Virus genome (UHGV): UHGV-0135730 | DNA from: a virus | Strand: one strand, 5' to 3' | DNA length: 54,321 nucleotides | Shown here: in pieces, positions 3,074 through 41,008 of the stretch | Layout: each line of letters starts with the position of its first letter | Position numbering within the stretch: position 1 is the stretch's first letter | Notes under the pieces: generated by a model | What the model was told of the DNA's origin: nothing | What the model saw: the letters and a program-made list of their open reading frames with translations, nothing else | Database searches by the model: none | Program-made: the position numbers and the translations under genes

Positions 3074-3077
3074 GATG

Positions 3078-4132: not shown

Positions 4133-4136
4133 ATTA

Positions 4137-4352
4137 TCACCACATCATATAATAAACGTTGTCGTTAGCTACTTCGTCAGCTTGTTCTTGTGTTAATAGC
4201 GGTGCGCTTTCCATAAAAGCATCAGAGTAATGCCATTCATAAACAAGCATTCGCGCCCATTTACGGCGCTGGCGCTTATTGCGACGCAGATCATCAAAAG
4301 CCTTTAATGCTTTGTCATACGCCCTTACCAGGCGCTTACGGTTACTTTTCAT
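4137..4352 (-). CDS. Hypothetical basic protein
   Basis: 71 aa ORF, Arg/Lys-rich. Confidence 0.4.
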   Translation of the reverse strand: MKSNRKRLVRAYDKALKAFDDLRRNKRQRRKWARMLVYEWHYSDAFMESAPLLTQEQADEVANDNVYYMMW

Positions 4353-6418: not shown

Positions 6419-7020
6419 GCCGCCTTTCTCCTTAAGGCGTCCAATTTAGCCTGATAGACTTTTATGATTTCCTTACATTCTTCTATCGTCCATTTGTGAG
6501 TTTCGTTGTTGTTCTCCAGCGCTACCACCCTGGCGAGGCCAATTTTTCGAATCAGTGCCGGGCGATACCCTCCGATGTTGCCGTCTAGTGTCTGGTTGCA
6601 GTGCCTGCATTGTTTATGGCAATTATCCTCGTTAAAGCGAAGATGTCCGGCGGCGGCTACCGTCCTGTAATGGCCCGCATCCCACCCGCATTGCTCACCG
6701 TAGTAAGTACCGCAAGATATACACGGCAAGCGCGCGTCACGTTCGCGAATATAGGCGTTAAATACATTTTGAACTTGTTTGATCCAATAACTACGCGGAT
6801 TTAACTGCTTCCGCTTCCGGTTGCGCTCTTCCCGCTGGCGGTCGCGGCGTTTCTTCCGCTCCATAGCCTTCATAGCCTTCTCACGGTCGCGGCATAGCTG
6901 ATCAAATTTCAGCTCTTCCAGACACTCATCACTGCACCACGTTTGATTATGGTATTTAGGCTCAAAAAAAACGCCGCAGCATTTGCAACGGCGTTTTATG
7001 GGTTTTTTAGGGTTCTGCAT
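6415..7020 (-). CDS. ninG: NinG (Rap) recombination protein
   Basis: RSYWIKQVQNVFNAYIRERDARLPCISCGT...WDAGHYRTVAAAGHLRFNE..NCHKQC matches lambda NinG; ATG at 7020. Confidence 0.85.
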   Translation of the reverse strand: MQNPKKPIKRRCKCCGVFFEPKYHNQTWCSDECLEELKFDQLCRDREKAMKAMERKKRRDRQREERNRKRKQLNPRSYWIKQVQNVFNAYIRERDARLPCISCGTYYGEQCGWDAGHYRTVAAAGHLRFNEDNCHKQCRHCNQTLDGNIGGYRPALIRKIGLARVVALENNNETHKWTIEECKEIIKVYQAKLDALRRKAA

Positions 7021-7034
7021 AAAAACCACCCCGA

Positions 7035-25103: not shown

Positions 25104-28100
25104 TTATTCTTCGCTTCCTGTTAACTGCCGGACAAGCGCTTCAAGTTTTGCGATACGCTCATCCATTGCGGCAATGTTGGCGCGTAGGCTGGCGTTTTCC
25201 TCTTCCAGTTCGGTTACGCGGTTATCTGTTTCGCGTGCCACCTGGACAAGTAAACCAGTCACCGCCGCATAGTCAACATTGAGGTAACGAGTTTCCTCGC
25301 GTAGCTCGTTGCCGTCAGTGGTCGGGCCTTGTAACGCTTCACCGTAATGAGTAAATGATCCAACAGCTTCCGGCAGCGCCTCCATGACCTCCTGAGCGAT
25401 AACGCCAGCGTAAGGCAGGCCGTTTTCCTTAAGGGTATAAGTGTACCCGTTCATTTTACGGATTGCTTCGGTAGCGTCACCTATAACCTGAATGTTGTCT
25501 TTAAGATCGCGGTCTGATGTTTGGGTAACTGTTGTGCATGTAATACTACCTCCTACCTGCAACTGGGCAGAACCATCTGAGAGGTATTTAGCCATAAACA
25601 GTGATTTCAATGATGTCTCACTACTGTTTGTATCAGCCGCTATGACTTCATAATACAACGGGACAGATTTATCACCCCACGATACTATTTTGGCGTTCAC
25701 TGTCGATGATGCGGAACACTGATGTTTCATGAAACGTGTGTGCGTGCTATCAAAGACATAATGAACAGTAAAATGATTGTCTCCTGTCCATAAGTTTTTT
25801 GTGTCAAGCGTAGCAAGTTGATGCCAGCCTTTATCAACTCCCGCCTCAAAACTTCTTGCATAGAATGATGAGTTTCGCCCGGCGAACTGGGTGGCATGTG
25901 TACCGCTAAATCCAACATGAAAACCGCCATATGTAACGTTGCTTTCAGGTGCATTAACATTACCCGCAATAGGCTTAAAATTGTTTAAGCTACCTGACTG
26001 CTGCGTGTTCCAGTCAGCGCCAGTTTCTGCAGCGTAACCTTTAGACGATCCTATCGTGCCATTTATAGTTAGCTTCGGCATCGTCATAGATATTTCTTCG
26101 CCGACGGTAATCCCGCTAAACAGACCTACGCGAGCACCACTACAAATATAATGGAGTCCTTCAGTTGTTGCGGAATAAAAACCACAACGCCCCATCCTGA
26201 AGTCAAACATAACCTGTAGGTTTTTATATGAACCTAAAGGATCTGATACACCCCACGGGATGATCGTTTCTGTATCTTTACCACTATTATATACAACCTG
26301 GGCGGTTGGTACTTGTACTGTTACGCCTACAGGCAAGCGCATTTTAACAGGGAATGCCCTTGCTTCAACAAAAACAAAGAGCAAGTTTTCTTTGTCTTTG
26401 CTGGAACTGCAGATAGAATGTAAAGCGATTTCTTTGTCGGTATAGCGATTATAAAAACCGTACCCGGCATCTTTTCTGTCACTCCACCCGCCAGTCCTTA
26501 TATACCCTGAAAAGGTGTTACAGTTCATTGGGTAACTACCAGCGCCAGACGCTGTAACAATATCGACCTGATAGCCAGTCAGGTAAGCGTTGTAATAATT
26601 GGCGTTTATAATTATAGGGTAATACTTCCCATCCTCAACGCCTTCCGGTGCTTCGATTGTCATCAACTCGCCACCGCCTATGGTTGGGATATTGAGATTT
26701 CTCCTTGTCTGTTGAGCGTTCTTAGCTTTGAAAGAGTCGGCTATAAATTCGCCGTTCGCGGTAAGGCTGGCGTATTTGCTCACGCCGCCAGTTCTCAAAT
26801 GCATTGTTAGCTGATCAGGCTCAGTAAGATGCGTTTCTGGATACACAGCACCATAAACACGCTCCGTTCCTGTTGTACCAACCAAAGCGCTAGATAAAAG
26901 ACCACCAGCAACCCACCCGGTAGTTACGTCAGTAGCCCTTTTTAGTGAAACATTAAGGAACTGCGGGCTATTTGAAGACCCGACGCCGAGGTTTGCCCTT
27001 GCTGTCTCTGCATTTGTTGCACCAGTACCACCCTGAGCAACGGCGAGCGGGATCCATTTTTTCTGCGTGTCGCTGTAACAACCCCATAATGAGGCTGATA
27101 AACCCATGCGCATAGAGTTGTCAGCGTTATATATCCACGTCTCGCTTCCCCACTCATCAACCCTTTCTGTTACTACAATTTTCTTCCATGCGCTCCAACC
27201 TTCCCCGTTAAACACCCTTCTATAGCTGGTTTTTACATCGTTAAACACATAATAGGTCTGGATGCACCCCTTAGCGTCACCCGCGCCAGTTTTTTGCACT
27301 AACAGTGATCCCGCAACCTGTTTAGGGTAATTTAACTCAGGTTTTGCGTTTGCTGATAAATATTGATGATAAAAGCCTGCCGAGTCTCCTTTTAAATCAT
27401 CAAGATTCTGAGTCGAACTAAGGGAAGATTTTGCATCATGCATAACCATTAGGTTATTTCTGGCTTCTGCTGCGTTTCCTGCACCAGTACCGCCATACAT
27501 AATGCCTAACTTAATTGCCCCAGTTGTTGAATAAGCACCCCACCCAGTGTTATTAACGAAGATATAATTTTTCTTGTCCCCGTCCCATAACTGACTTTCT
27601 TTTGAGGAACCAGCACTTTGAAGTAAGCGATCCACTTCATCCTTGCGTGCGTGGCGTGTCCAGTTCGCGCCTGATGATGCAATCCATGTATAGGTATAAA
27701 GTGATCGCGTAGACCAGCCGACAAAGACGCCTGTATATGAAGGCGTTGTGTCTCGTTGACAGATAAATCCACTCAAAAATGATTCACCAGCCGCCACGGA
27801 AGGAAAACCCTTAGTCGTTTCCTTTATGCGCAAAAATCCAACGTAAGAAGACGGATTGCCTGATATATCGGTGCAATCTCGCGGCTCTGGCCCCAAGCCA
27901 ATATTGCTGCCATCTATTGCGCTGGATATTTCATCTTCCTTTTCCTGATAAAAACGAAGCGTTTCCGCTACATCCTGAGCAAGCCCATCAACTGAGATCG
28001 AGTCAGAAAGCAGAATGCTAAATTTTGTCCCGGCAGCGATTGCAGGGCTAGCCGCTGGCGTTACTGACAGTTCAGTACCGCTCTTGATTTCAGTAATGGT

Positions 28101-28235
28101 AAAGATCTGGATAGGGTTGCTAATAGCAATAAGCGTGCAACCTACACGAATGAGAGAAAGCGGCGCGGAGAAGTTTGTGCCCGTGCCTTTAACAGTGTTG
28201 CCGTTGATGGCAATTGTTCCAGTTGTGTAAATCAT
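25104..28235 (-). CDS. Side tail fibre with C-terminal intramolecular chaperone (S74-like) domain
   Basis: 1043 aa; C-terminal TSDRDLKDNIQVIGDATEAIRKMNGYTY...coiled coil resembles self-cleaving chaperone domains of tail fibres/tailspikes. Confidence 0.75.
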   Translation of the reverse strand: MIYTTGTIAINGNTVKGTGTNFSAPLSLIRVGCTLIAISNPIQIFTITEIKSGTELSVTPAASPAIAAGTKFSILLSDSISVDGLAQDVAETLRFYQEKEDEISSAIDGSNIGLGPEPRDCTDISGNPSSYVGFLRIKETTKGFPSVAAGESFLSGFICQRDTTPSYTGVFVGWSTRSLYTYTWIASSGANWTRHARKDEVDRLLQSAGSSKESQLWDGDKKNYIFVNNTGWGAYSTTGAIKLGIMYGGTGAGNAAEARNNLMVMHDAKSSLSSTQNLDDLKGDSAGFYHQYLSANAKPELNYPKQVAGSLLVQKTGAGDAKGCIQTYYVFNDVKTSYRRVFNGEGWSAWKKIVVTERVDEWGSETWIYNADNSMRMGLSASLWGCYSDTQKKWIPLAVAQGGTGATNAETARANLGVGSSNSPQFLNVSLKRATDVTTGWVAGGLLSSALVGTTGTERVYGAVYPETHLTEPDQLTMHLRTGGVSKYASLTANGEFIADSFKAKNAQQTRRNLNIPTIGGGELMTIEAPEGVEDGKYYPIIINANYYNAYLTGYQVDIVTASGAGSYPMNCNTFSGYIRTGGWSDRKDAGYGFYNRYTDKEIALHSICSSSKDKENLLFVFVEARAFPVKMRLPVGVTVQVPTAQVVYNSGKDTETIIPWGVSDPLGSYKNLQVMFDFRMGRCGFYSATTEGLHYICSGARVGLFSGITVGEEISMTMPKLTINGTIGSSKGYAAETGADWNTQQSGSLNNFKPIAGNVNAPESNVTYGGFHVGFSGTHATQFAGRNSSFYARSFEAGVDKGWHQLATLDTKNLWTGDNHFTVHYVFDSTHTRFMKHQCSASSTVNAKIVSWGDKSVPLYYEVIAADTNSSETSLKSLFMAKYLSDGSAQLQVGGSITCTTVTQTSDRDLKDNIQVIGDATEAIRKMNGYTYTLKENGLPYAGVIAQEVMEALPEAVGSFTHYGEALQGPTTDGNELREETRYLNVDYAAVTGLLVQVARETDNRVTELEEENASLRANIAAMDERIAKLEALVRQLTGSEE

Positions 28236-28412
28236 CGCAATGACTCCATAATGTTAATTAACGGAATAATTCTACCATTTTGTGATCTGTGTTGCATTTT
28301 CTGCTTACACAAAATGTATTTGTTGATTTTTATCAATATACGAAATGTGGTTTTGTCGGATATTTAAGTCACCGGATGAACCGGACGAACCAACAAGAGC
28401 GAGGATTCAAAG

Positions 28413-28661
28413 ATGAAAAACGTATTCAAAGTGGTTTTGTTCGCTGCGGCTGTAGCTCTTACTGGTTGTGCTGTTGACAAAGAGGCTGCATTGCATAACC
28501 TGCCGAACAGCGGAGTGATTCCACAGGATGTTGTCTATGATGGTAGCGGTCATCTTGTCTATGACACTGAAAAGCTACCGTATACTGGGCAATGGTGTCA
28601 TGAACTCGATCACAACATGCGCCGCATCGGTAGCCCGTCAAACTGTGTAGCTAACTACTAA
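28413..28661 (+). CDS. Small lipoprotein (opposite-strand cargo between fibre genes)
   Basis: Signal peptide with lipobox LTGC (MKNVFKVVLFAAAVALTGCA); own terminator. Confidence 0.65.
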   Translation: MKNVFKVVLFAAAVALTGCAVDKEAALHNLPNSGVIPQDVVYDGSGHLVYDTEKLPYTGQWCHELDHNMRRIGSPSNCVANY

Positions 28662-28666
28662 AAGAA

Positions 28667-28694
28667 AACCCCGCGCGAAGCGGGGTTGTTTTTT
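28667..28694. terminator. Bidirectional rho-independent terminator
   Basis: Hairpin CCCCGC-GCGAA-GCGGGG flanked by A-run and T-run. Confidence 0.7.
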
Positions 28695-31600
28695 AACCTG
28701 AGAATGTACCAGAACCGCGCGACACAATGACAGTCGGCGAGTTTATATATGCCCCCTTACTATTTTGAGCGGATACACTAATTATCACTGTAACGCTCCT
28801 GTTAGCTACTGATGCTGCGTGCATAACAAGGCGCTCTTCGCCAGTCATAGAAAGTTGTTTCTGCGAACCGCTGATGTTTATCGTACATCCGCCGAAGCCC
28901 TTAACGTTTGCTATGACACAAACATGTCGGGCGTATGCTGCGTCTGTTGTATCGTAGTACTGAATTGTTTTTTGCAATACGCCATTTTGTAACCTGCTAA
29001 CGTCAGATCCCGTATACATGTTCGCAACGTCACCGATAAATGTCTTCGCTTCCAGTTGTCCTGAGAATTTACCGTTGGTTGCGTACACTGTACCGTTAAA
29101 CACCCCATCATTAGCGTATACCGTGCCCCTTATTGTTGCCTGGTTAAATACTGCTGCACCGTTTTTGTTTATCGCCCAGCCTGTACCGTTTTCCCAGCTG
29201 TAATTACTGGATTGTATTTGCTGAGCTATTTTTGCAGTAGTGATCGATGCGTCTTTAATAAACGCTTCTTTCACATACATTGCACCGTTAGACACATAGA
29301 ATGGCGTTGTATATGTGCCGTTTGCAGCCGTCATCAACACGAAGCGGTCAACAAGGAAGATACACTGCGATTGGACGTTAGTACCGTTGCCAGTCAGCCC
29401 AAGCGACATACCTGTCGCATACTTCATGCCGTTGTTGTCGGTTGCCAGCTTGATGGAATACGTCGCATCGACATTACCTTTGAAGTCGGTTAACGCTTTC
29501 GAAGTAGTCTGTATAGCTGTTGTGTTCCCGTTAACGGTCACTGTTAGCTGATCGATTTTGCTTGATAATGCCTCGTCAGCCGTTGCCATTGTCTGTGACC
29601 ATTCTGTAATACTTGAGTTTACAGAATCGAAAGACGCTGAGATCTGGCCGAATTTTTCCGCGCTTGATGCCTCATGCGTAGAAAGCGCCGTTGATACCTC
29701 AGACACCTTCGAGTTAATCGTACTGGTAAGCGATGAGTTAAGGTTACTTATCGCGTCAGTGCGTGCCTTCGTTTCGTCAGCGACGGCCTTGTCGAGACGG
29801 TTAACGTTGCTTGTCACTTTGCCATCAAGGGTTGAAATTGATGCGTTCACGCCAGTGATGGCTTGTGCTCTGGCGCTGGACTCGTCAGCAATCGCCTGGT
29901 CCAGTCTGCTAACCTCGGATTCAGTGTTGCTTTCGAGGGTGTTAATGCTCGCATTCACTCCACTGATAGCTTCTGTTCTTGCGCTGGTTTCGTTGGCAAT
30001 AGCCTGATCTAAACGTTTAACGCTGGCGTCGGTTTTCTTGTCGAGCGCTGAAATGCTTGCGTTAACGTTGCTCACCGCCTGGCTGCGTGCGTTGGTTTCG
30101 TCAGCGATAGCCTTATCGAGACGTGAAACGCTGGCATCGGTTTTCTTATCAAGATCCGTGATCGATGCTTTTACCACGCCGATTGCTTCGGCTGTAGCTT
30201 TTTTCTCTTCAGCGATAACACTGTCAATACGATCAATCTGCGCGCTTGTTTCCTTGCGACCTTTCTTGTACTGGGCCGTAAGCGTAACACGCGTGTTGGT
30301 TTGAGCGATTGAGTTGTTAATCAGAGCAATAGATGCGTTTTGCAGGCTTGCTTTGGTCTGGCTTATTTCGTCGCTGTTCTTGTCAACGTTATTTTCAACC
30401 TTGCCAAGCTCGGCGCTGATTCCAGATATAGCCTGAGCACGGGCGCTTGATTCGTCAGCAATAGCCTGGTCTAAGCGTTTTACGCTGGCGTTTGTGTTAC
30501 TTTCGAGCGTTGTTAAATCAGCTTTAACCTCTGTTATTGCGTCGCTTCTTGCCTGCGTTTCATCTGCTATTGCTTTATCGAGTCTGGAAACGCTGGCGTC
30601 TGTTTTGCTTTCAAGGTTGCTTATTGATGCTTTCACATCGCTCACAGCCTGGGCGCGGGCGCTGACCTCGTCAGCAATAGACTGGTCAAGGCGTTTAACT
30701 GCCGAATTGGTGTTACCTTCAAGCGTGTCAATACTTGCTTTGACACTACTGATAGCTTCAGTTCTTGCACTGGTTTCGTCTGCTATTGCTTGATCCAGGC
30801 GTTTAACGCTGGCGTCGGTTTTCTTGTCAAGCGCTGAAATGCTTGCGTTAACGTCACTGACTGCCTGTGTGCGGGCGTTCGTTTCGTCTGCAATAGCCTG
30901 ATCAAGTCTATTGACGCTGGCATCGGTTTTCTTGTCGAGATTGCTTATTGATGCGTTCACGCCGTTAATTGCTTCGGCGCGGGCACTGGTTTCGTCAGCT
31001 ACTGCGCGTTCCACGCTGGAGATCTGACCCTTGAGGTTGGAATCCATCGTGTTCATTTCTGCCGTGATGGTTTTCAGAGATTCAGCCGTGGCCTGTTTCT
31101 CATCAGCAATAACGTTGTCAATGCGGTCAATTTCAGCCTTCGTCTCTGTCCTGCCTTTCTTGTACTGTGCAGTGAGAGTAACCCGCGTGTTGGTCTGAGC
31201 AAGGGAGTTGTTGATAAGTGCCAACGACGCGTTTTGCAGGCTTGCTTTTGCTTGCGCCAGTTCACTGCCAACTTTTTCGCTGGATACCTCCAGAGAGTCT
31301 ATTCTTGCCTCATGCTGTCCAATATCGTCGGCGTTTTCCCCAACCTTTTTGTAAAGATCTTCCGTCTCTTTTTTCAGTGTGTCCGTGTCAGCTTTTATGG
31401 CCCCTGTTTCTGTGATTAGGCCGTCCGTATCAGTCCTCAATTCGTCAGTGATGTTTGTCAGGTTGTCAGTGTCAACCCTTAAATCGTCAGTGATGTTTGT
31501 CAGGTTATCAGTTGCAGTTTTGAGGCTGTCAGTAGCGTCTTTAAGGTCATTTGTAGCGCTTTCGATAAGGTCGGCGCGGTTGCCAAGATCTTCAATATCG

Positions 31601-34077
31601 CTAATCATGCCCTTGAACTGCTCTGACCCCATGACGTCCTTCATCACGTAGTCGCTGATTTCGTCAAAGTTTTCAGTCGGTTTACCTGATGCCTCAACGA
31701 AGTCTGACACACCGAAAGCGTTACGCGTGCGCACATAAACGTAATAGGTGTGGCCCGTGTTCATGCCGCCAAAAGTCCATTGGTAGCCGCGCCCGGTGAA
31801 TTGCGCCAGCGTGGTTACTTTTGACGGGTCTGTGATCTGATTCTCACCTGAGTAGTAAAACTCATATGCCGTATCAGTGGTCAGCGTTGTTTTGCTGATC
31901 GGGTAGACTGTTGCCTGGAAGACGCCCGGAATCCAGTTGACTCCAATCGGGGCCGCTGGCGCACCAATAACCAGGTCAACAATACTTTCCGCACCCTTCA
32001 TACCAGTGTCATTACGCCCGCGAATACCAAGCGTGTAGCTGCCAGCGTTGAGGCCATAGAAATCATAACGGTAATTCGTGGTTTCATAAGTTGCCACTAC
32101 ACGCCCATCTGCGTTATATACGCGGATTTCAAAGGTCAGGCGATGCGTTGTTGTCTGTGTTTCCCACGTTGCGCGGCATTGAACCGTCTCAGAACCAACA
32201 TTTAACACCCTCAGGTTTTCGATGTTCGGAACGCGGAAGTGATTAAGCGTGTCGTTGTTTACCTCGAAGATTGCACCTTCATCAACTACAGCCTGTTTAT
32301 GCGGATCGTGCTGTGCAGCCTCAATGGTGTACACGCTGTTATTTTCGGTTTCCGCTACACTGGTAATTCGGCACAGAACCGGTTTTGCAGATTCAGTAGA
32401 CACGGCGAATACGGTTCCGTTGCGGATCCATGCTGGCGCTGCCGCAAGGGTAATATTGTTTCCGTTAACCCCAGTGATCTGATGTTTTTTAAACTTGCCA
32501 TCGCTGTCCAGCAAGCTGATGGTGTCACCAGCCGCCACCAGGTCAGAATCAACCTTGTCTACAGTTATTACTTTCCCGTTATTCGCCACGATGCGACCGC
32601 CTAAACGAGCGCCTGCGCGGTTATTGTCGAGTATCTCGATAATATCCCCTGGGGTGAAGTGAATTGCGTCACGGGCCATTTTAAACGTGAATTTTGAGGG
32701 TTCGCGTTTTGCTGTTTCTATCAGCCATTTGCCTGCGCGGTACGCCTGCCCGCGTGATGTGCAACCAAAAGCCTCCAACGTGGTTTCGTTGTAACCATCG
32801 CGGGCGATCAGTTCATCATCTGCCACGTATTCTTTTGATTGTTCCCAACCGTTTTCCGGGTCAGTCCATGATACGATCACGGCGTTGTAAGATTCTGCGC
32901 GAGCGATACTTGAACGAGTGAACGCGCCATCAACGACGTTAGCATTCGTGATGGTGGCAATTGGATCCTGAGGCGCATCAATCATCACAGTAAGGCGCTG
33001 CCCGTCCCATAACGCGATACCACGGAACATGCCCGCAATGTTGTCCAGCAAGTCGCGTGCGCTCATTTGCTCAGTGATGTATGCGTTAAGCGTCATGCGT
33101 GGTTCAAGGCCACCGTAACCGTCGTTTACCAACTGGTCGCAGTATTGAGAAAGCGTATACAGTGCGCCGTCATCAACGTCGATGTAACCAGCGTGGCGGG
33201 CAAGCCCGAAGCGTTCATTTTTAACCAGATACCGGAAAAGCCATGCAGGGTTGTTGGTATATGCCTTTTTAAAGCCACCAAGCCATAAACCTGAATATGT
33301 GCGCGTTTCCGGGTCGTAGTTATCAGGCACGTCAACAATCAGACCGCGCATGTGATAGGTACGTGTCGGCGTGTCAGTATACTGATCGTGGTCAATTACC
33401 GCGCCTGCTACAGCGGTGTGAGGATAAGATAAATTATCGTCGATTATCTCGCTGTAACTGCTCCACCTGGTGTCATTGCGAAGTAGATCGCTTTTGCTGT
33501 CTGGCGTTATGCGACGAACGCGGATGTCAAACGGTTTTTCATCCGGTGCCTGGATGATATGCGCTTCCATGTACTCGCCGCTTTGCTTACCAGGGCCAAT
33601 GGTAATGCCTTTAACAATTGACCATGTTGTTGATGATGAAGGCTTAACGTCAACAGCCAACGTAACAGATGTGTTGTATTGATTGCCTTTATCATCTGAC
33701 TGAACCAGAGAATCGACACCAAGATTCAGCCTTACGCGGTTAACGTTTGGATCTGAAACGGTTCGGATTATTGGTGTATCGTAAGTCACTTTTGCGTTAA
33801 CAATAACGGTTGATTCAATGGCGTTGAATCCGTTGATTGGTGACTGGTCTGCCGTACCATTACGCCACGCCACGCTGACGCCGGGGACTGATGTATTACC
33901 GTTGGCGTCAGTGATTGGGCTGTCATTAAGCATTACGCTGTTTAATGGCGCTTTCTGGTTTACAGGTCCATAGATTGGGCCCTCGCTGAGAATGTCCAAA
34001 ACGCGATAGAACTGTTTATGGAACAGGTTATCGTTTAATAGTGTTGGTGTTTTGGCTTTGCCGCCGCCGCTACTCAT
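28693..34077 (-). CDS. Central tail fibre / host-specificity protein (lambda J-like) with inserted coiled-coil repeat region
   Basis: 1794 aa; N-terminus MSSGGGKAKTPTLLNDNLFHKQFYRVLDILSEGPIYGPV parallels lambda J; central 36-aa tandem repeats; J-like C-terminal domain. Confidence 0.8.
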   Translation of the reverse strand: MSSGGGKAKTPTLLNDNLFHKQFYRVLDILSEGPIYGPVNQKAPLNSVMLNDSPITDANGNTSVPGVSVAWRNGTADQSPINGFNAIESTVIVNAKVTYDTPIIRTVSDPNVNRVRLNLGVDSLVQSDDKGNQYNTSVTLAVDVKPSSSTTWSIVKGITIGPGKQSGEYMEAHIIQAPDEKPFDIRVRRITPDSKSDLLRNDTRWSSYSEIIDDNLSYPHTAVAGAVIDHDQYTDTPTRTYHMRGLIVDVPDNYDPETRTYSGLWLGGFKKAYTNNPAWLFRYLVKNERFGLARHAGYIDVDDGALYTLSQYCDQLVNDGYGGLEPRMTLNAYITEQMSARDLLDNIAGMFRGIALWDGQRLTVMIDAPQDPIATITNANVVDGAFTRSSIARAESYNAVIVSWTDPENGWEQSKEYVADDELIARDGYNETTLEAFGCTSRGQAYRAGKWLIETAKREPSKFTFKMARDAIHFTPGDIIEILDNNRAGARLGGRIVANNGKVITVDKVDSDLVAAGDTISLLDSDGKFKKHQITGVNGNNITLAAAPAWIRNGTVFAVSTESAKPVLCRITSVAETENNSVYTIEAAQHDPHKQAVVDEGAIFEVNNDTLNHFRVPNIENLRVLNVGSETVQCRATWETQTTTHRLTFEIRVYNADGRVVATYETTNYRYDFYGLNAGSYTLGIRGRNDTGMKGAESIVDLVIGAPAAPIGVNWIPGVFQATVYPISKTTLTTDTAYEFYYSGENQITDPSKVTTLAQFTGRGYQWTFGGMNTGHTYYVYVRTRNAFGVSDFVEASGKPTENFDEISDYVMKDVMGSEQFKGMISDIEDLGNRADLIESATNDLKDATDSLKTATDNLTNITDDLRVDTDNLTNITDELRTDTDGLITETGAIKADTDTLKKETEDLYKKVGENADDIGQHEARIDSLEVSSEKVGSELAQAKASLQNASLALINNSLAQTNTRVTLTAQYKKGRTETKAEIDRIDNVIADEKQATAESLKTITAEMNTMDSNLKGQISSVERAVADETSARAEAINGVNASISNLDKKTDASVNRLDQAIADETNARTQAVSDVNASISALDKKTDASVKRLDQAIADETSARTEAISSVKASIDTLEGNTNSAVKRLDQSIADEVSARAQAVSDVKASISNLESKTDASVSRLDKAIADETQARSDAITEVKADLTTLESNTNASVKRLDQAIADESSARAQAISGISAELGKVENNVDKNSDEISQTKASLQNASIALINNSIAQTNTRVTLTAQYKKGRKETSAQIDRIDSVIAEEKKATAEAIGVVKASITDLDKKTDASVSRLDKAIADETNARSQAVSNVNASISALDKKTDASVKRLDQAIANETSARTEAISGVNASINTLESNTESEVSRLDQAIADESSARAQAITGVNASISTLDGKVTSNVNRLDKAVADETKARTDAISNLNSSLTSTINSKVSEVSTALSTHEASSAEKFGQISASFDSVNSSITEWSQTMATADEALSSKIDQLTVTVNGNTTAIQTTSKALTDFKGNVDATYSIKLATDNNGMKYATGMSLGLTGNGTNVQSQCIFLVDRFVLMTAANGTYTTPFYVSNGAMYVKEAFIKDASITTAKIAQQIQSSNYSWENGTGWAINKNGAAVFNQATIRGTVYANDGVFNGTVYATNGKFSGQLEAKTFIGDVANMYTGSDVSRLQNGVLQKTIQYYDTTDAAYARHVCVIANVKGFGGCTINISGSQKQLSMTGEERLVMHAASVANRSVTVIISVSAQNSKGAYINSPTVIVSRGSGTFSG
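29560..31560. repeat. In-frame tandem repeats within J-like gene (about 108-bp units plus a higher-order duplication)
   Basis: Repeated units encoding ...KKTDASVKRLDQAIADETSARTEAISGVNASI...; duplicated block encoding LTAQYKKGR... at about 30260 and 31160. Confidence 0.75.
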
Positions 34078-34090
34078 GGTTTTTCTCCTG

Positions 34091-34621
34091 TTAACTTACA
34101 ACGTCAAGGGCGTCTCTGTTGTTACTTGTGTCTATGCCTAACGACCCGACATTTGAACCTATTTTCATTTCACCCAACAGGATCGGCACTGGTCTACCCT
34201 GGCCTACCTTGTTTTCAACGCTGGTGTATGTGTTGTTAGATATGGTGTTATCTTGTGCGCTTTCTGCTGATGTTTTTATCTTCATGTTGCGTGACATAAA
34301 GATCGAGAATGCAACGCTAACAACCGAAACACCAATCAAAATCCAGCCTACAACGCCAATCCCCGCAATACCACCTTCCACAACTGGTGCAACAATGACT
34401 GTGGTTCCGTCCGGGTATTTACTGTTAACCGCTGCGGGCGCGGTCTTTTCGTCATAATCTTTCCCGGCAATCCTCAGGCGCAAAGGGGTATTTAAAAACG
34501 CCTTCTTGAACTCATGATTCTGCGCAACCAATAAGTTAAGACCTTGCGCTGGCGTATCAACGTTCAAACACACCTTGCCGTAATATCTTCGAAGATTGCC
34601 CGTAAATCTAAACTTGAGCAT
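34091..34621 (-). CDS. Tail assembly protein I-like
   Basis: 176 aa, position between K and J, hydrophobic central segment. Confidence 0.6.
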   Translation of the reverse strand: MLKFRFTGNLRRYYGKVCLNVDTPAQGLNLLVAQNHEFKKAFLNTPLRLRIAGKDYDEKTAPAAVNSKYPDGTTVIVAPVVEGGIAGIGVVGWILIGVSVVSVAFSIFMSRNMKIKTSAESAQDNTISNNTYTSVENKVGQGRPVPILLGEMKIGSNVGSLGIDTSNNRDALDVVS

Positions 34622-35295
34622 TTGTCAGATCTCCATATTGAATTGGTCTGTCGAACATACGCGGGCCGCATTTGCTCGCGGCGGCTTAACAGTCCGGCAT
34701 TGTCATGATGCAAAACAGTGTTATCGCCCAGGTAAATCATCGCGTGGCATGGGTCAGCGCCTTTAAACGGCTGGCGGATAATCACGTCACCGGGCTGAAT
34801 GCTTTGCGCGTCAACCATGAAAAACCCGTTCAATGGCAGGTTCTTTATGTACAGGTTTTCCCCACGCAGCCACCACCCGTCGTGGCGTTCAAAGTCAGGC
34901 AGATCCACGCCGCATAGGTGATAGGCGTCACGGAAAAGCGAATAACAGTCTGTTTTCCCGTGCTCAAATTTACGGCCTAACAGGTGCGCCACTGGGCGGA
35001 ATTTTCTCACCCTGCCACCGGAGCACAAAAACCACGGCAGGCCGGAAATAACCTGCTGTTGTCGATCCCGCGCTGACAACACCAATGAATCATTAGTATG
35101 TGAGTGGAAAACAGCTGTTATAACGCCCAATTCGTCAGCTTTGATATAATCGTCAGGAGAGATTTTAAAACTGTTGTGCGGCGTTTCAGACACGTTAGCG
35201 CACGGGTAAAAATAATCGTTATCTATCACCAGCCCGCACACTTCCTCGCGCGGGTGGGCTGCCGCATAGCGAATCATTTTATCTTCAAGTGCCAT
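34564..35295 (-). CDS. Tail assembly protein K-like (MPN/JAMM plus NlpC/P60)
   Basis: HSHT JAMM-like motif (FHSHTNDS) and C-terminal Cys/His peptidase-like region; start at MALEDK. Confidence 0.7.
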   Translation of the reverse strand: MALEDKMIRYAAAHPREEVCGLVIDNDYFYPCANVSETPHNSFKISPDDYIKADELGVITAVFHSHTNDSLVLSARDRQQQVISGLPWFLCSGGRVRKFRPVAHLLGRKFEHGKTDCYSLFRDAYHLCGVDLPDFERHDGWWLRGENLYIKNLPLNGFFMVDAQSIQPGDVIIRQPFKGADPCHAMIYLGDNTVLHHDNAGLLSRREQMRPAYVRQTNSIWRSDKCSSLDLRAIFEDITARCV

Positions 35296-35297
35296 AA

Positions 35298-36002
35298 TTA
35301 ACCGACCTTGCTTGATCCGGGAAAACATGAAATTGGTAACGGATTGGGGCGCGGGAAACGCAAACGGCAACCGCTCAGGCGGTGGCTGCATTTATCCAGC
35401 TTTGGATCGCTGGTCGATTCGTCTTTATCTGTAGCTACAGGGCCGCCACTGTATCCGCAACCGTCGCCCCGGTATTGCCACTGGCAAACGTCAGCAAGGA
35501 TTGTGCGCCCAGGAATAACCGCCTTGTCAGCATCAATTGGCGTTGACAGTTCATACTGCACCTGGTCGGCTGTTTCTTCGCTCATCGCCTCAACGACGTA
35601 AAAAGATACAGCCTCGATAGATGGATCTGCATCCGGGTTGCCGTTGGGGAAATTAACGGCGTCCAGGTATTTTACTTCCACTTGGCGGCGCGTAACCTTC
35701 ATTCCTCGCAGGTCGTTAAAATCGTTGTTCATCCCGGTGATTAGCCCGCCAATGTTGGCTACTACCATTTGCGGGCGCGAGTAAACGCCTTCGTTTTTCA
35801 TTTCGAAGCCAGTAGCCTCGATTGGGTAGCTGTTGTAAGTCACTCCCTTCCAGATAACCGGGCCGTAATAACCATTCGCGCCGGAATGGAAGCGGATAAC
35901 CTCGCCACCCAGGGGTGTGAGGTCTAATTCAAACAGGTCAATTACCGCGCCGACTCCGGCATCGACGGAATCAATAATCATTTCTGTAGGTATGGTGCGC
36001 AT
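35298..36002 (-). CDS. Minor tail protein L-like
   Basis: 234 aa, position and C-terminal Cys cluster as in lambda L. Confidence 0.65.
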   Translation of the reverse strand: MRTIPTEMIIDSVDAGVGAVIDLFELDLTPLGGEVIRFHSGANGYYGPVIWKGVTYNSYPIEATGFEMKNEGVYSRPQMVVANIGGLITGMNNDFNDLRGMKVTRRQVEVKYLDAVNFPNGNPDADPSIEAVSFYVVEAMSEETADQVQYELSTPIDADKAVIPGRTILADVCQWQYRGDGCGYSGGPVATDKDESTSDPKLDKCSHRLSGCRLRFPRPNPLPISCFPGSSKVG

Positions 36003-36298: not shown

Positions 36299-36646
36299 AT
36301 GCAAAAATATAGTCTTGATGTGTGGTTAAGTGGTTGCAAGGAGTGTTTCGGATTATTTGATAGCGAAGAGGCAGCTTTGGAAGAAGGAAGGATTCTTGAA
36401 TGTAGTTTAGGCCATCCAGTGAAATATGCTGCTAATCCGGTGCAGGTAAATGATGAGGTGGAAAACATGAACCCGAAAGATATTAACTTTAACGTCAATG
36501 TTGAATTTGCAGGCTCTATGGATCAGGCTTGCCCTGGTGAAATCCACGCAAAAGGCTTCCCGGCTGACGATCCTGAGGCAAAACGCGAATACGAAAAAGC
36601 GGCGAAAGACTTCTGCATTGATAACCTGGGCGCATTCGATAAATAA
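36299..36646 (+). CDS. Hypothetical protein (cargo cassette)
   Basis: 115 aa ORF on strand opposite to tail operon. Confidence 0.55.
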   Translation: MQKYSLDVWLSGCKECFGLFDSEEAALEEGRILECSLGHPVKYAANPVQVNDEVENMNPKDINFNVNVEFAGSMDQACPGEIHAKGFPADDPEAKREYEKAAKDFCIDNLGAFDK

Positions 36647-36655
36647 GGCGGCAAC

Positions 36656-36904
36656 ATGGGGCGGCGCAATCACGGCGATTATGTGTACACGTTGAAACAG
36701 GCCGCCCGCCTAGTTGGTTATCATGAACACGAATTTATTGATTTGCTGATTGAGCGCGGGATACTGTACCAGGTCTGTTTAACGCTGTACCCGAAAGCGA
36801 AATACCTACAGGAAAAGTTATTCATCATCATGACGGATGAAAACCAGGTTAACCATTCATTCGTCACGGATAAGGGCGTTAATTATCTGCGTGATAACTT
36901 ATAG
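36656..36904 (+). CDS. Putative HTH DNA-binding protein (cargo cassette)
   Basis: YTLKQAARLVGYHEHEFIDLLIERGIL resembles MerR/excisionase-type HTH. Confidence 0.45.
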   Translation: MGRRNHGDYVYTLKQAARLVGYHEHEFIDLLIERGILYQVCLTLYPKAKYLQEKLFIIMTDENQVNHSFVTDKGVNYLRDNL

Positions 36905-36914
36905 GTGACAGATT

Positions 36915-37031
36915 ATGAAAATAGAAGTTTTGGCGCTAATAATAATGGGATTGATAGTATTTGGCGTTCATGCTGTAGATCTGGACTGGAAAACGATAGC
37001 GGAAAATATAGCATTAATGGAAATGGAATAA
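36915..37031 (+). CDS. Small hydrophobic peptide (38 aa)
   Basis: MKIEVLALIIMGLIVFGVHAVDLDWKT...; last ORF before terminator. Confidence 0.35.
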   Translation: MKIEVLALIIMGLIVFGVHAVDLDWKTIAENIALMEME

Positions 37032-37034
37032 TAA

Positions 37035-37062
37035 TAACCCCGCTTCTCGCGGGGTCGTGTTT
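37035..37062. terminator. Bidirectional terminator hairpin
   Basis: Hairpin CCCCGC-TTCTC-GCGGGG with flanking A/T runs. Confidence 0.55.
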
Positions 37063-37258
37063 ATACGCCATCAACCAAAAATAAAACCTCCTTCCCTTCC
37101 CGGGATCTACACCCCACGTACCCATCGCCAACGTCGTGAAGATACCATATATCGCCGTTGTCAGCTTTTACAGTAAGGTCGTTGATCTCATAGTCGTCAA
37201 ACAATGTAAAAGCGTAAGTTTTGTCAACTACACAAGTCCCGTACATAACAACCCCCAT
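37061..37258 (-). CDS. Hypothetical protein downstream of M
   Basis: 65 aa ORF, start overlaps M stop. Confidence 0.4.
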   Translation of the reverse strand: MGVVMYGTCVVDKTYAFTLFDDYEINDLTVKADNGDIWYLHDVGDGYVGCRSREGKEVLFLVDGV

Positions 37259-37611
37259 TAGCCAACAACTTGTTCAAACGTTGCGTTTAGCGTGTACACA
37301 GGCCCGTCTTTGGTCATGCTCCAGCTACGGCAAACGAAAAGCCTTTGCACCCCGTCGATCGATGGAGTCCAGTAAAACGCCTCGACAGCGCCGCGCGCCC
37401 TCAAAAATGCTTCGGCCTGGATCGCCACGTTTCCACCATCACCACATCCCGCGCTACTGCCTTTGAAAACCAGGGTGTAACTATCAAGCAACGTGTTAAT
37501 CCCTTTCGCCTGGCGCTGTTCATAACCATCACCAAGTTTAACGACAGACACATTTGGTTCCCTGGTCACGCTGTAGCTTCTTTGCGGCGTCCATCTGAAA
37601 ACTTCTGGCAT
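37258..37611 (-). CDS. Minor tail protein M-like
   Basis: 117 aa; position after tape measure; GGGGG RBS. Confidence 0.65.
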   Translation of the reverse strand: MPEVFRWTPQRSYSVTREPNVSVVKLGDGYEQRQAKGINTLLDSYTLVFKGSSAGCGDGGNVAIQAEAFLRARGAVEAFYWTPSIDGVQRLFVCRSWSMTKDGPVYTLNATFEQVVG

Positions 37612-37639
37612 GATTCCCCCTATAAGTTACATATTGCAT

Positions 37640-37668
37640 ACATCTTTACGCGCCTCTACGCGAAAAAT
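37640..37668 (-). promoter_or_regulatory. Conserved 29-nt element upstream of M (second copy at portal start)
   Basis: Minus strand ATTTTTCGCGTAGAGGCGCGTAAAGATGT; near-identical to 49853-49881. Confidence 0.45.
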
Positions 37669-37739
37669 GAGAAATTCATCACAAGAATTATAACCAGTTT
37701 ACAAAATGGCTTCACATAAGGCGTGACAAGATGTATATA
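37668..37739 (+). promoter_or_regulatory. CRP-like site plus TACAAAATGG-type promoter for cargo cassette
   Basis: TGAGAAATTCATCACA (37668-37683); GTTTACAAAATGGC then TTCACA-17-TATATA (37711-37739). Confidence 0.5.
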
Positions 37740-37779
37740 GTAAGCAAGAAGAAAAAGCAGTACCGACAAGGGGGGCAAT

Positions 37780-37935
37780 ATGGAACGCTATGTGGTTGTG
37801 ATGCTGAACAAAGCATTCGAACAGGTGGAAGTTGCGATTGTGAAGGGCTTTGATGATGCATTCAAATACGGTCAATTCATGATGAATGCAAAAGAAGATG
37901 AATACCGTGATTTCTTCCTGAAAGTGGTCAACTAA
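37780..37935 (+). CDS. Hypothetical small protein (cargo cassette)
   Basis: 51 aa ORF. Confidence 0.45.
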   Translation: MERYVVVMLNKAFEQVEVAIVKGFDDAFKYGQFMMNAKEDEYRDFFLKVVN

Positions 37936-37953
37936 TGGATTGCGGGGTGGGTT

Positions 37954-38208
37954 ATGAAATTGGTAATGATTGGTAAAAACCTGAAAGCACAGAAAAACGC
38001 ACAGGACCGGATCATCAAAAAGGGCAAGGCTTTATTAAATGCTTTCCTGAAAAAAGAGGCCAACCCCAAAAAATTACGCGATGGCTACGGTTATAAATTT
38101 GACATCAACCCCGATTGGCGGTTATTCAGCGAAGATTTAAAGATGTGGTTAATTATTGACCACCTGGAATATAACAGGCACTGTGGGGTGAAAGGTGCTC
38201 ACAAGTGA
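37954..38208 (+). CDS. Hypothetical basic protein (cargo cassette)
   Basis: 84 aa ORF. Confidence 0.5.
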   Translation: MKLVMIGKNLKAQKNAQDRIIKKGKALLNAFLKKEANPKKLRDGYGYKFDINPDWRLFSEDLKMWLIIDHLEYNRHCGVKGAHK

Positions 38209-38239
38209 CACGGATTTGAATGTTGCGGAGGAAAACAAA

Positions 38240-38410
38240 ATGAAAAATCCGGCAAATAAAAGCAACGTAAAACGCATAGCCTGGGTGCTAAAATATATGG
38301 ATAGTAAAGGGGATACATATACATGCCCATTTTTCAGGTATACTGACGCGGTATTTGCCAGAAGTGTACACGGAGGGAAAATTGAGAGAGGATATACAAG
38401 ATTTGAGTAA
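38240..38410 (+). CDS. Hypothetical small protein (cargo cassette)
   Basis: Start at MKNPANK with GGAGG RBS. Confidence 0.45.
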   Translation: MKNPANKSNVKRIAWVLKYMDSKGDTYTCPFFRYTDAVFARSVHGGKIERGYTRFE

Positions 38411-38448
38411 ATTTATTCACGAAATCAATAACATGACGAAGGTTAACA

Positions 38449-38628
38449 ATGGTTATTCATGAGACTGAAGAATGCAGAAGTATTAATCTTAGTATTGAAG
38501 ATGACGGGAGATTATGGATCGTTAGCGACTGCGAGATGATTGTAATAGACCAAAAGCAAGCTGACGAACTAATAAGAGCATTACAGCTTTATGCAAACGG
38601 CGAATTTAAAAATGATGAAATTGAATAA
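38449..38628 (+). CDS. Hypothetical small protein (cargo cassette)
   Basis: 59 aa ORF ending at terminator. Confidence 0.45.
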   Translation: MVIHETEECRSINLSIEDDGRLWIVSDCEMIVIDQKQADELIRALQLYANGEFKNDEIE

Positions 38629-38632
38629 AGAT

Positions 38633-38665
38633 AACCCCGGCATTGTACCGGGGTTTTGTTTATTT
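38633..38665. terminator. Bidirectional rho-independent terminator
   Basis: Hairpin CCCCGG-CATTGTA-CCGGGG followed by TTTTGTTTATTT. Confidence 0.7.
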
Positions 38666-41008
38666 CCTGCGAGGTTGCAACATTCCTCCGGGTCGTTGCG
38701 ATTCCCTTGCCATCATTTTCATCGCGACGCGTTCCATCGTCTGTTCAAGTCTGCGACTGTCTTCGTCGCTAAATCCGTTTGTGGTCTGTACGGTGATGTT
38801 AACAGGCATATTGATGCCGCCGCCGCTGAAGAGATCACGGCCAGGAATTACCCTACCATTCTCGCCAGGAATCATATACTGACGCCCGTTGCTCGTCTGG
38901 AATAGCTCTGGGATTCCGTGCTCACCTACGCGATACAGGCTGCCACCATTAACAGAACCACCATTATAACGCCCGCCACCAAAGATTGACGTTGCCAGCG
39001 ACATGATCGCAGAAAGCGCCGCAGCACCAGCCGCCGCCCAGCTACCACCAGTTGACGCCGCAGTCGCCGCCGCCGCTGGGGCCGCCGCCGCTGCAATCTG
39101 GCCTTGTGCCGCTACTGCGCCAGCCGTTGTACTTGCCTGGGTAGCCTTGCTTTGCGTTTCCATCATCAATTGATCTGCTATCCAGTTAGCGGCAATTTCT
39201 GACAGTTTGTTGCCAACGGTGTTAAGTATGCTACTTCCCAGGTTGGCGAAAACCTCGCTTAATGATTGAGTGCCGTTTAGCAGTCCGGTAAGGGCATTAC
39301 CCATGCCACCCTTCAGGCCGCTGACGCACGCACCAATCAGGCCGTTTGTTTCGCTTTGCGCCTGCCATTGTTCCCATTTCAGATCTCTGATCTGTTGTTC
39401 ATATTCCAATAGCGCCTGTTTCTGTTGCGCCTCTGTAGCGCCCAAGTCTATCAGCATTTGTTTGCGAACGGCCCATTCATTTTGTGCCTGCTTGATTGGG
39501 TCAATTTCTCCCTTAAGCTGGTCCATCGGGCTGACTATGTGATCCCATTTGTCGCGTAGCTCATCAACAGGGATTTGCGCCAATTCGTCCTTCAGTTCCT
39601 TGCCTATCCCTTTCTGCGCGGCCTTGTACTCAAGTAGGGTTATTTTGCCCTGGGCGAATGCAGCTTCAATGGCCTTGCCGTTCTCTAATGCTTTGCGCAT
39701 AGCGGCGGCGTCCTTGTTGTACTGGTCGGACACTTTTATGCCTTCATCACCAAGCCGATCAGCTTCAGATTTCTTGTCCTTTTTGCCCTTTTTCCCTTTT
39801 TTAGGCTTACCGACTGGCTGATCGAATCCGGTGATCTTGCCATCGTCAGCCTCATCCTGTTTCTGCATTAACTCATCATAGGCGGCGGTCGCGTTTTTAA
39901 TGTCGTTTGCAAACGTCATGACTTTGCCGACGGTGGGGCCAAATTTTTTCTCGTTGTTGCTGTTTAGCTCTTCCTTGCGTTTATCGACGATCTCCTTCAT
40001 CCACTTGTAACCATCCATTAGCGCTTTGATTGGCGTTACCATTTTGATGATTTCTTCCGCCACCTCACCAGCCTTAACAGCAACGTCGTCAAACATGTCG
40101 ATGAACTCGTTACCAGCGGTTTTAAGTGTGTTGAAACAGGTTGCGGCGAATTTTGCGCCTTTACCCAATCCCTCAACGCCACCAGTGATTAAGTCTATTG
40201 CTGTTACAACGCCGTCAGATATGCCGAAAAGATCATCAAGCTGTTCGACAAGTCCCATAACCTCAACTTTAAGCTCGTTGAAGGCCATGCCGGATGTGCG
40301 AGGCAACTGCGCAAACTTCTCGTTTGTTTCCTGCGTAGCGGCCTGGATCGCGTTAAGCATCCTTTCAGCCGTGATCTTGCCGTCCAGCATTTCAGCGCGG
40401 AACTGACCCATAGACAACCCCATTTGGCGGGCCATTTCCTGTATGATTGTTGGTGTGTTGTCACGTATTGAGTTAAATTCCTCAGCCTGCAACACGCCAG
40501 CATCAATAGCCTGGCGGAACTGAAGCATGGAGTTTGATAGTTGTTCCGCAGACACGCCGCCCAGGTTGCCGAGTTTTTGCAGCGTGCTAACCAGGTTGAG
40601 TACCTGGCCTTCTGTAGCGGATGTGTTTTTTAGCGATATAGCAAGACCTTGCCACAGGGCACCAGTATCCTTGAGGCTTTGGCCTGTTTCTTTTGATATA
40701 TCTTTCAGTCTGTTGAAAACACGTTCCGTGGCCTCCGCTTCACCTGTAAGCAGTTTGATTTTTACGCGAAGCATTTTCGCTTGCTCCGCCATGTCAATAA
40801 ACTGGCGTACAGCCTCCGCAGCAAGTAGCAAATGGATAACCCTGGATAGCGCTTTGATTGAAGTCTTAAGCGTGTTCACCTGGCGGTCAGCGCGTTTTGC
40901 GCCACGCTCGATGCTGTCAAAAGCCTGGTCTGCCTGTCGTTGAGCAACGAGAAGTTGACCAGTTTTTGCATCAACTTCGTAGTAAATTGTACCTAAACTA
41001 GTTGCCAT
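38660..41008 (-). CDS. Tail tape measure protein
   Basis: 782 aa, coiled-coil rich with Gly/Ala-rich segment; between chaperone and M. Confidence 0.85.
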   Translation of the reverse strand: MATSLGTIYYEVDAKTGQLLVAQRQADQAFDSIERGAKRADRQVNTLKTSIKALSRVIHLLLAAEAVRQFIDMAEQAKMLRVKIKLLTGEAEATERVFNRLKDISKETGQSLKDTGALWQGLAISLKNTSATEGQVLNLVSTLQKLGNLGGVSAEQLSNSMLQFRQAIDAGVLQAEEFNSIRDNTPTIIQEMARQMGLSMGQFRAEMLDGKITAERMLNAIQAATQETNEKFAQLPRTSGMAFNELKVEVMGLVEQLDDLFGISDGVVTAIDLITGGVEGLGKGAKFAATCFNTLKTAGNEFIDMFDDVAVKAGEVAEEIIKMVTPIKALMDGYKWMKEIVDKRKEELNSNNEKKFGPTVGKVMTFANDIKNATAAYDELMQKQDEADDGKITGFDQPVGKPKKGKKGKKDKKSEADRLGDEGIKVSDQYNKDAAAMRKALENGKAIEAAFAQGKITLLEYKAAQKGIGKELKDELAQIPVDELRDKWDHIVSPMDQLKGEIDPIKQAQNEWAVRKQMLIDLGATEAQQKQALLEYEQQIRDLKWEQWQAQSETNGLIGACVSGLKGGMGNALTGLLNGTQSLSEVFANLGSSILNTVGNKLSEIAANWIADQLMMETQSKATQASTTAGAVAAQGQIAAAAAPAAAATAASTGGSWAAAGAAALSAIMSLATSIFGGGRYNGGSVNGGSLYRVGEHGIPELFQTSNGRQYMIPGENGRVIPGRDLFSGGGINMPVNITVQTTNGFSDEDSRRLEQTMERVAMKMMARESQRPGGMLQPRRK

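Follow-up and report, generated by a model that had tools for sequence, protein, structure and literature searches.

The window analyzed here is virus genome UHGV-0135730, a stretch of 54,321 nucleotides (nt) that encodes a lambda J-like central tail fiber protein (J, or TipJ) of 1794 amino acids (aa) at 28693..34077, identified from the list and translation of its open reading frames (ORFs) and from Pfam, PDB and phage homology. Between hub and tip, J carries a predicted alpha-helical shaft of about 720 residues that contains nested in-frame repeats. The explanation judged probable as a whole is that this shaft is modular and that recombination between its repeats generates fibers of different length; in J genes of relatives, two recent recombination events are shown in which whole modules were gained or lost. 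Shaft length differs more than two-fold (367–858 residues) in close relatives, purely by whole-module recombination, which makes these phages a case of modular fiber-shaft evolution. The repeat region and its size heterogeneity were already noted briefly for the closest relatives in 2025, and the gene is a documented example rather than a new kind of element. Added here are a definition of the unit with its 3.6-residue periodicity, a copy range of 3–13, two exact junctions, the finding that shaft length does not depend on tip class, and a residue-level link to the fold-switch module of a pyocin.

Repeat architecture of the J shaft

The J ORF is open without interruption across 5385 nt, and all of its parts described below lie on the minus strand. 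The N-terminal hub with its FNIII and Ig domains (aa 1–811; 31645..34077) is colinear with lambda J 1–858 and is recognized by Pfam as FNIII-A_GpJ (aa 88–214; E=2e-36), Phage-tail_3 (335–492; 1e-28), and the Ig/FNIII pair Ig_J (609–707; 2e-16) and Ig_J_second (709–811; 3e-32). At the other end are a Phage_Tail_Tip (DUF1983) domain (aa 1521–1658; 29104..29517; PF09327, E=9.4e-39), modeled with beta strands by AlphaFold2 (AF2), and a C-terminal receptor-binding region (aa 1659–1794; 28696..29103) that varies among relatives. These hub domains, two Ig/FNIII domains, DUF1983 domain and variable end are those of a lambda gpJ-like protein. Residues 1–858 of lambda J (PDB 8iyk, 1132 aa) align to aa 1–851 (E=3.9e-186), and residues 838–1005 align to aa ~1515–1692, including the tip domain. 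Lambda residues 838–858 align to both flanks of an insertion of ~663 residues (aa ~852–1514) that separates the last Ig domain from the tip domain, in agreement with an earlier sequence-only reading, which had put the excess over lambda J at about 660 aa. While lambda gpJ shares the colinear N-terminal 850 aa, the same Pfam domains, a homologous tip and the L-K-I-J gene order, it is essentially shaftless, and the receptor-binding domains of the two proteins are unrelated in detail. A Pfam search found no curated domain over aa 815–1520.

The shaft as a whole (aa 801–1520; 29518..31677), a sequence that lambda J lacks, was delimited by AF2 and by a hydrophobic period of 3.59–3.60 residues. It contains heptad-based repeats of 7 or 14 aa of the TDNLTNITDDLRVD type (aa 846–912; 31342..31542), found by motif listing and as a 42-nt direct repeat of 81% identity; these are the shorter repeats that had been reported upstream of the main array. 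Leader A (SLQNASLALINNSLAQTNTRVTLTAQYKKGR...; aa 945–1004; 31066..31245) follows, with a predicted helix break at aa 969–975 (31153–31173), and after it block A, which consists of six 36-aa (108-nt) units located by a unit hidden Markov model and their 108-nt spacing (aa 1005–1220; 30418..31065). A spacer (aa 1221–1242; 30352..30417) separates block A from leader B (aa 1243–1302; 30172..30351), a copy of leader A with a helix break at aa 1268–1276 (~30250–30276). Block B consists of four 36-aa units (aa 1303–1446; 29740..30171), the last of which aligns to residues 970–995 of the F2-pyocin fiber, and a post-array helical segment (aa 1447–1520; 29518..29739) aligns to residues ~1002–1059 of the F2/F7-pyocin fiber, a region of 32-aa modules.

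The unit profile recognizes ten full units (6+4), each with an E-value of 1e-19 to 1e-23, and one further degenerate copy in each leader, which bears out the claimed in-frame array of 36-aa (108-bp) coiled-coil repeats. Both leaders are ~60 aa long and of the SLQNASxALINNSxAQTNTRVTLTAQYKKGR type, with LTAQYKKGR at aa 968 and 1266. They are offset by 298 aa (894 nt) and are 77% identical over 168 nt, so that the duplication of about 900 bp that had been described is real, with the qualification that the two higher-order copies are unequal (6 vs 4 units). The proposed self-comparison of the gene likewise revealed periodicity. In-frame DNA autocorrelation over gene nt 2521–4560 peaks at lags of 894, 786, 108, 216, 678 and 324, with match fractions of 0.41–0.49 against a median of 0.29 (z 4–7), and protein autocorrelation peaks at 298, 262, 36 and 72 aa; autocorrelation of the N-terminal 2 kb of the gene gave no peak. 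The description of "about 2 kb of tandem repeats" fits the entire helical shaft with its three nested periodicities and is too wide for the 36-aa units, which occupy 1080 bp.

At the DNA level the units of the window are old. They are 50–87% identical, the longest exact word in common, between units A3 and B2, measures 29 nt, and no array in 28000–35000 was reported by Tandem Repeats Finder; periodicity is detectable only by gapless repeat search, autocorrelation and protein profiles. With no such array and with diverged units, the window does not carry a high-identity contingency array of the variable-number tandem repeat (VNTR) kind. Because of this divergence, instability of the array should be modest and events rarer in the window phage. 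The best recombination substrate would be the A3/B2 pair, which is 87% identical and exchange between which would produce an in-frame deletion of 786 nt.

That the array might be a mis-assembly or a chance low-complexity stretch is hardly credible. In its favor, many J proteins in databases are partial and end in the array, where short-read assemblies struggle. However, the ORF is intact over 5385 nt, the units have diverged enough for unique assembly, the unit E-values given above speak against an artifact, and 47 other complete genes have the same design, with the window architecture equal to that of phage mEp554 minus one unit.

Length variation and recombination among relatives

The J gene of the window is 84–91% identical at the nucleotide level to J of the Escherichia phages mEp010, mEp554, mEp044, mEp021, mEp515, mEp013 and MagusPhagus, and identity to these genomes is ~90% over another 25 kb of the window. 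By this identity, the window is assigned to the mEpimmI group of temperate coliphages, as a new member of genome size. J of this group (mEp021, mEp010, mEp013, mEp044, mEp515, mEp554) is the same gene in the same genome architecture with the same three repeat layers, and the mEpimmI-type layout is present in the window as leaders and units at aa 945–1446, a conserved tip at 1521–1658 and a variable end. The mEpimmI J proteins have been described as differing in size, with "repeats of different length (positions 950-1,475)" (PMC11893012, 2025), a description that neither defines the unit nor reports how many copies there are, their periodicity or the junctions of recombination. Four of these phages (mEp010, mEp013, mEp044 and mEp554) require LamB, and mEp021 and mEp515 require OmpA (PMC11893012). 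The last 136 aa of the window J are 71–78% identical to the LamB users and 23% identical to the OmpA users, and a LamB-type tip is likely.

Protein-database searches gave few full-length J sequences, and length was instead surveyed in annotated phage and E. coli genomes and in IMG/VR: 7 phage records, 12 E. coli prophages and the window (20 genes), together with 28 complete IMG/VR genes (48 in all). The comparison of J lengths that had been suggested thus reveals wide variation, with lengths of 1393–1935 aa across the 48 genes (1404–1813 aa in the IMG/VR set). The genes carry 3 to 13 units, arranged in one block or two (3, 4, 5, 4+2, 4+3, 4+4, 6+4, 7+4, 8+2 and 11+2). None of the 19 homologues to which the same threshold was applied has the 6+4 layout of the window; for the IMG/VR set, whose ten-unit genes show 7+3 and 8+2, the threshold was lower. 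The segment from the Ig domain to the first leader measures 132, 135, 142, 156, 170 or 184 aa, in steps of 7 or 14, and the whole shaft spans 367–858 aa (~55–129 nm if extended), and the shaft changes in length by steps of 36 and 86 aa. The indels that were traced among relatives each comprise whole repeat units, of 7, 14 or 36 aa. For example, the window array corresponds to that of mEp554 without unit A4, and mEp010 has one 14-aa repeat and two units fewer. Unit order is mosaic among lineages.

Database proteins matching the shaft query are mostly partial, starting or ending inside the repeat array, and J is split across contig ends in one IMG/VR contig (L053/L054). Short-read assemblies evidently break in the J array, which explains the frequent truncation of J in this common gut coliphage group and calls for caution in annotation.

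The exact junctions come from two sets of relatives. J of mEp515 (1393 aa) differs from J of mEp021 (1727 aa) only by the lack of 1002 nt, the sequence to both sides being free of mismatches: the two are identical over nt 1–3395 and then, after the 1002-nt shift, from nt 3391 to the end. The crossover falls within a 5-nt window (nt 3390–3395) inside units A4/B4, which are ~83% identical over 167 nt, and the flanking genes of the two phages are merely 99.1–99.7% identical. By this comparison mEp515 is the deletion derivative, because diverged sequence cannot arise by unequal exchange. Each of the two phages is viable and uses OmpA (PMC11893012). The second set comprises the E. coli prophages LP-26, GN04592 and MS 21-1, in which J measures 5187, 5079 and 4971 nt, single 108-nt steps accompanied by 1–4 other mismatches. 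The LP-26 gene contains 3.4 tandem copies of the 108-nt unit at 100% identity (extracted locus 2139–2505), a VNTR-like DNA array of high identity, and comparison with its sister prophages indicates a very recent expansion or contraction. The generation of fiber-length variants by whole-unit indels is therefore borne out for the family (mEp515/mEp021 and the LP-26 set) but not within the window genome, for which the statement that the repeats are recombination-prone was overstated.

Shaft length varies independently of what stands at the tip. The C-terminal ends fall into three classes (~150, ~256 and ~276 aa) that are freely combined with shaft lengths, a 736-aa shaft being found with all three, and among relatives shaft length showed no association with receptor or receptor-binding domain class. 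Such independence, together with the wide range of lengths, would be expected if length responded to some property of the host besides its protein receptor, and length might be selected to span the O-antigen or capsule of the host, with repeat gain and loss adapting the phage to layer thickness. This explanation is nevertheless unlikely. The O-antigen layer seems much shorter than shafts of 55–129 nm, and K-12 is not known to have an O-antigen or capsule. Moreover, length does not track receptor among relatives, and all six characterized mEp phages can be plated on K-12, whatever their unit number (3 to 11; PMC11893012).

Predicted structure and function of the shaft

Structure prediction and sequence periodicity both describe a continuous helical rod with few interruptions. 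As a single sequence, aa 801–1560 are predicted by AF2 to be all helix, with breaks only at aa 969–975 and 1268–1276, the QYKKGR segments of the leaders. With an alignment of 44 sequences, AF2 predicts helix over aa 1340–1480, followed by the beta tip domain; mean predicted local distance difference test (pLDDT) values per 10-residue block are 85–98, and pLDDT is 94–98 for aa 1350–1470. The hydrophobic period is 3.60 in both blocks and 3.54 in the upstream heptad region (aa 846–945), so that near-heptad spacing is confined to that region and the 36-aa units depart from the canonical heptad (3.5). Core positions 4, 7, 15, 18, 22, 33 and 36 are hydrophobic in all 88 distinct units. Their spacing of 3,4,4,3,4 repeats every 18 residues, making the 36-aa unit two (11+7) half-units and ten helical turns. 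By coiled-coil geometry, the half-units and ten turns predict an almost unsupercoiled three-helix bundle. J homologues are trimeric in every solved structure (8iyk, 25vf, 9l9p), for which reason a trimeric three-helix shaft is the natural model. The homologous region of solved F-type pyocin fibers is a three-stranded coiled-coil shaft (PMC13455828). If fully extended at 0.15 nm per residue over ~720 residues, the shaft would measure ~105–110 nm, as three rods joined at kinks. The fiber would then be roughly as long as the tail tube, as judged from the likely tape-measure ORF (782 aa) and published tails of ~130 nm.

These features fit together as follows. The shaft would follow the last Ig/FNIII domain of the tail-tip hub and precede the beta tip with its receptor-binding domains, as a rod that holds the receptor-binding tip far from the tail. 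It would be assembled from register-preserving modules of three kinds, namely heptads (7/14 aa), the 36-aa unit, and a super-unit of ~298 aa made of a kinked leader and a unit block. Unequal or homeologous recombination between in-frame units would delete or duplicate whole modules while keeping the protein reading frame; because every module is an in-frame repeat, modules could be lost or gained without breaking the protein, and a lineage would hence carry viable fibers of many lengths. Read conservatively, the shaft would be a modular spacer whose length determines how far the receptor-binding tip stands from the tail, and in this way length may affect adsorption.

Several observations weigh against this explanation. 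The units of the window are diverged, and ongoing length variation is supported through relatives and not within the window genome. AF2 was run on the monomer only, and its confidence is modest for the full shaft as a single sequence (mean pLDDT 61). No phenotype is tied to length, phages with 3–11 units all infecting K-12. Published transmission electron microscopy of the group describes tails of ~130 nm with no mention of a terminal fiber of ~100 nm; a rod 2 nm wide could, however, easily escape notice in negative stain. The possibility that block A obligatorily folds back on block B was also considered and rejected, since the blocks are unequal (6+4, 11+2, 8+2) and phages with a single block are viable.

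Two other fibers help to place the modular spacer among known systems. The adenovirus fiber shaft contains pseudo-repeats whose number differs among serotypes and sets its length, and a terminal knob sets receptor specificity; it has another fold (triple beta-spiral), belongs to other viruses, and has no sequence relationship to J. Closer to J is gp33 of phage T1 (PDB 9l9p, PMC11945409), which is likewise longer than lambda J and contains tandem 33-aa "VIATETEALSREIDQLKAQIGDDIQASLTDIRE" repeats with the IA-ETxA motif also present in the window J. The C-terminal 350 aa of T1 gp33 are unresolved and predicted to protrude ~37 nm (PMC11945409). Unlike the window J, it has 1172 aa and 2–3 repeats of 33 aa (three hendecads), with no higher-order duplication and no reported copy-number variation.

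The helix breaks could have a role of their own, with the kinked leaders (QYKKGR) serving as attachment sites for side fibers and the duplication providing a second tier. In the F2 pyocin, three side-fiber trimers bind a (glycine) kink in the helical shaft (PMC13455828), and non-coiled-coil interruptions in phage fibers have been suggested as side-fiber sites (10.64898/2026.01.28.702463). AF2 places helix breaks only at the two leaders, and a side-fiber gene lies immediately downstream of J (25104–28235). However, mEp515 lacks the second leader of mEp021 yet has the same downstream (fiber) genes, and a single side-fiber gene is present in relatives regardless of whether they have one leader or two. 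Furthermore, the N-terminal ~105 aa of the side fiber resemble the N-terminal anchor domain of Klebsiella-phage (podophage) depolymerases (7lzj/7vyv), its PDB sequence matches include neither lambda Stf nor a pyocin side-fiber chain, and the window kink is basic where the pyocin kink is acidic. A docking role is supported neither by gene content nor by side-fiber homology at the N terminus, and is improbable.

A bolder possibility, entertained tentatively, extends the modular spacer instead of replacing it. After receptor binding, part or all of the shaft may switch from coiled coil to a compact beta-prism, as a stack of fold-switching modules. The switch would make the fiber several times shorter, bring the tail tip to the outer membrane, cause the tip to open and set stored energy free, and the copy number of units would tune both reach and this energy. 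The precedent is the central fiber of the F7 pyocin, in which a 163-residue coiled coil becomes a beta-prism on cell contact, a change essential for killing (10.64898/2026.01.28.702463). This switch follows an SxSxxMxxLxS motif of alternating orientation and buried Glu-Arg(i+4) pairs, and such switches are predicted in 21 of 24 siphophage fibers (10.64898/2026.01.28.702463).

The window J is linked to that segment by homology. HMMER aligns J aa 1368–1643 to residues 917–1187 of the F2-pyocin fiber 25vf, tip domain included (E=5e-29), and a check of numbering shows that this alignment covers the switching segment (F7 residues 921–1083): 25vf has all eight residues of the F7 study at the same numbers (A987, A995, A998, V1010, A1011, A1017, E1039 and R1043). 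On 25vf the motif falls at 970, 1002 and 1034 in reverse and at 985, 1017 and 1049 in forward orientation, with spacings of 15 and 17. The placements at 970 and 985 fit four of five positions under author-chosen residue sets (at 985 the M position is T990). The mutated "corner" residues lie on S positions of 25vf, and the neutral controls lie off them. These pyocin modules map to J 1423, 1438, 1456, 1471, 1488 and 1503, which are the last 36-aa unit and the post-array segment.

The motif also recurs through the array. In each of the 88 distinct units it is found at position 13 in reverse (13–23) and at position 28 in forward orientation (28–38), a reverse-to-forward spacing of 15 that equals the pyocin spacing (column permutation, P~0.0055). 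The shaft contains 44 occurrences compared with 13 +/- 3.5 in shuffles. In addition, an E25–R29 pair is invariant in the units and mirrors the buried E1039–R1043 salt bridge of the pyocin. From sequence, the 36-aa unit looks like a paralogue of the 32-aa hairpin module of the pyocin.

Other observations count against a switch. An AF2 run (monomer, alignment) that looked for a beta alternative in the units returned helix alone, with pLDDT above 94. The motif residue sets were picked after reading the paper, from its frequencies, and the motif is loose, with 9 matches in the 800-aa N-terminal part of J. Because the repeats are not independent observations, the enrichment counts as that of a single ancestral unit, and the conserved small residues beside core positions could serve tight trimer packing instead. 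Lambda and T5 show no such switch, and ~163 is the largest number of switching residues observed in a fiber.

Compared as whole fibers, the F-type pyocin proteins (F2 25vf, F7) are J-like, with an extended three-stranded alpha-helical shaft before a beta tip. They have in common with the window J a residue-for-residue alignment of the last unit and post-array segment, the motif and the E-R(i+4) pair. The pyocin shaft has ~163 switching residues and a 32-aa module without a long tandem array, whereas the window shaft has ~720 residues and a 36-aa module present ten times with a higher-order duplication. Fold switching and side-fiber docking are established for the pyocin and hypothesized for the window J. 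By analogy, collapse of a shaft of ~100 nm to a short beta-prism could act as a one-shot winch that pulls the tip to the outer membrane and powers its opening, module number tuning reach and stored energy; this stronger form is speculative and somewhat the less likely of the two. If it were true, mEp021 and mEp515, which have 11 and 4 units in an otherwise identical J and use the same receptor, OmpA, would amount to a natural experiment. Whatever the mechanism, such relatives are natural near-isogenic length variants in which the role of central-fiber length in adsorption can be tested. Should the pyocin link hold, they would constitute a system with a naturally varying number of fold-switch modules, with bearing on how non-contractile tails pass from first contact to membrane penetration.

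Genes adjoining J and within the repeat region

Upstream of J are homologues of L, K and I in the L-K-I-J order of siphovirus tail modules: Phage_tail_L at 35298–36002, K (Prok-JAB and NLPC_P60, that is, JAB + NlpC/P60) at 34564–35391, and a 176-aa ORF at 34091–34621 that has no Pfam match and is I by annotation of relatives. The gap between I (34091..34621) and J (28693..34077) is 13 nt. In mEp021 and mEp515 an HNH endonuclease gene lies between I and J and overlaps the J start (extracted loci 6463–7029 and 6461–7027); at this site the gene is absent from the window and from the other relatives.

Downstream, an 82-aa ORF on the plus strand (28413–28661), convergent with J, lies between J and the side-fiber gene and encodes a lipoprotein signal and lipobox (MKNVFKVVLFAAAVALTGC...). 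J and this ORF have in common a GC-rich hairpin terminator at 28667–28687 that is bidirectional. Annotation of relatives names a lipoprotein at the site, and Lpp superinfection-exclusion proteins have been described in the mEpimmI group (PMC11893012). The side tail fiber gene, on the minus strand like J, encodes 1043 aa with a Peptidase_S74 intramolecular chaperone at aa 907–958.

The likely tape-measure ORF (782 aa) is at 38660..41008. Between it and the tail-tip genes, a stretch of ~2.2 kb (36498–38660) contains no ORF of at least 150 aa. In relatives, the stretch beyond L, on the side away from J, carries small opposite-strand genes annotated as transporter, hypothetical and KilAC antirepressor, and by this comparison the stretch at 36498–38660 may be a moron-like insertion.

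Inside the repeat region, antisense ORFs of 88–149 aa occur on the plus strand (29212–31651), and plus-strand "terminators" are annotated inside J in the records of relatives. Terminator-like matches on the plus strand number 11, with 8.5 expected, and both they and the antisense ORFs are probably by-products of a repeated, stop-poor sequence.

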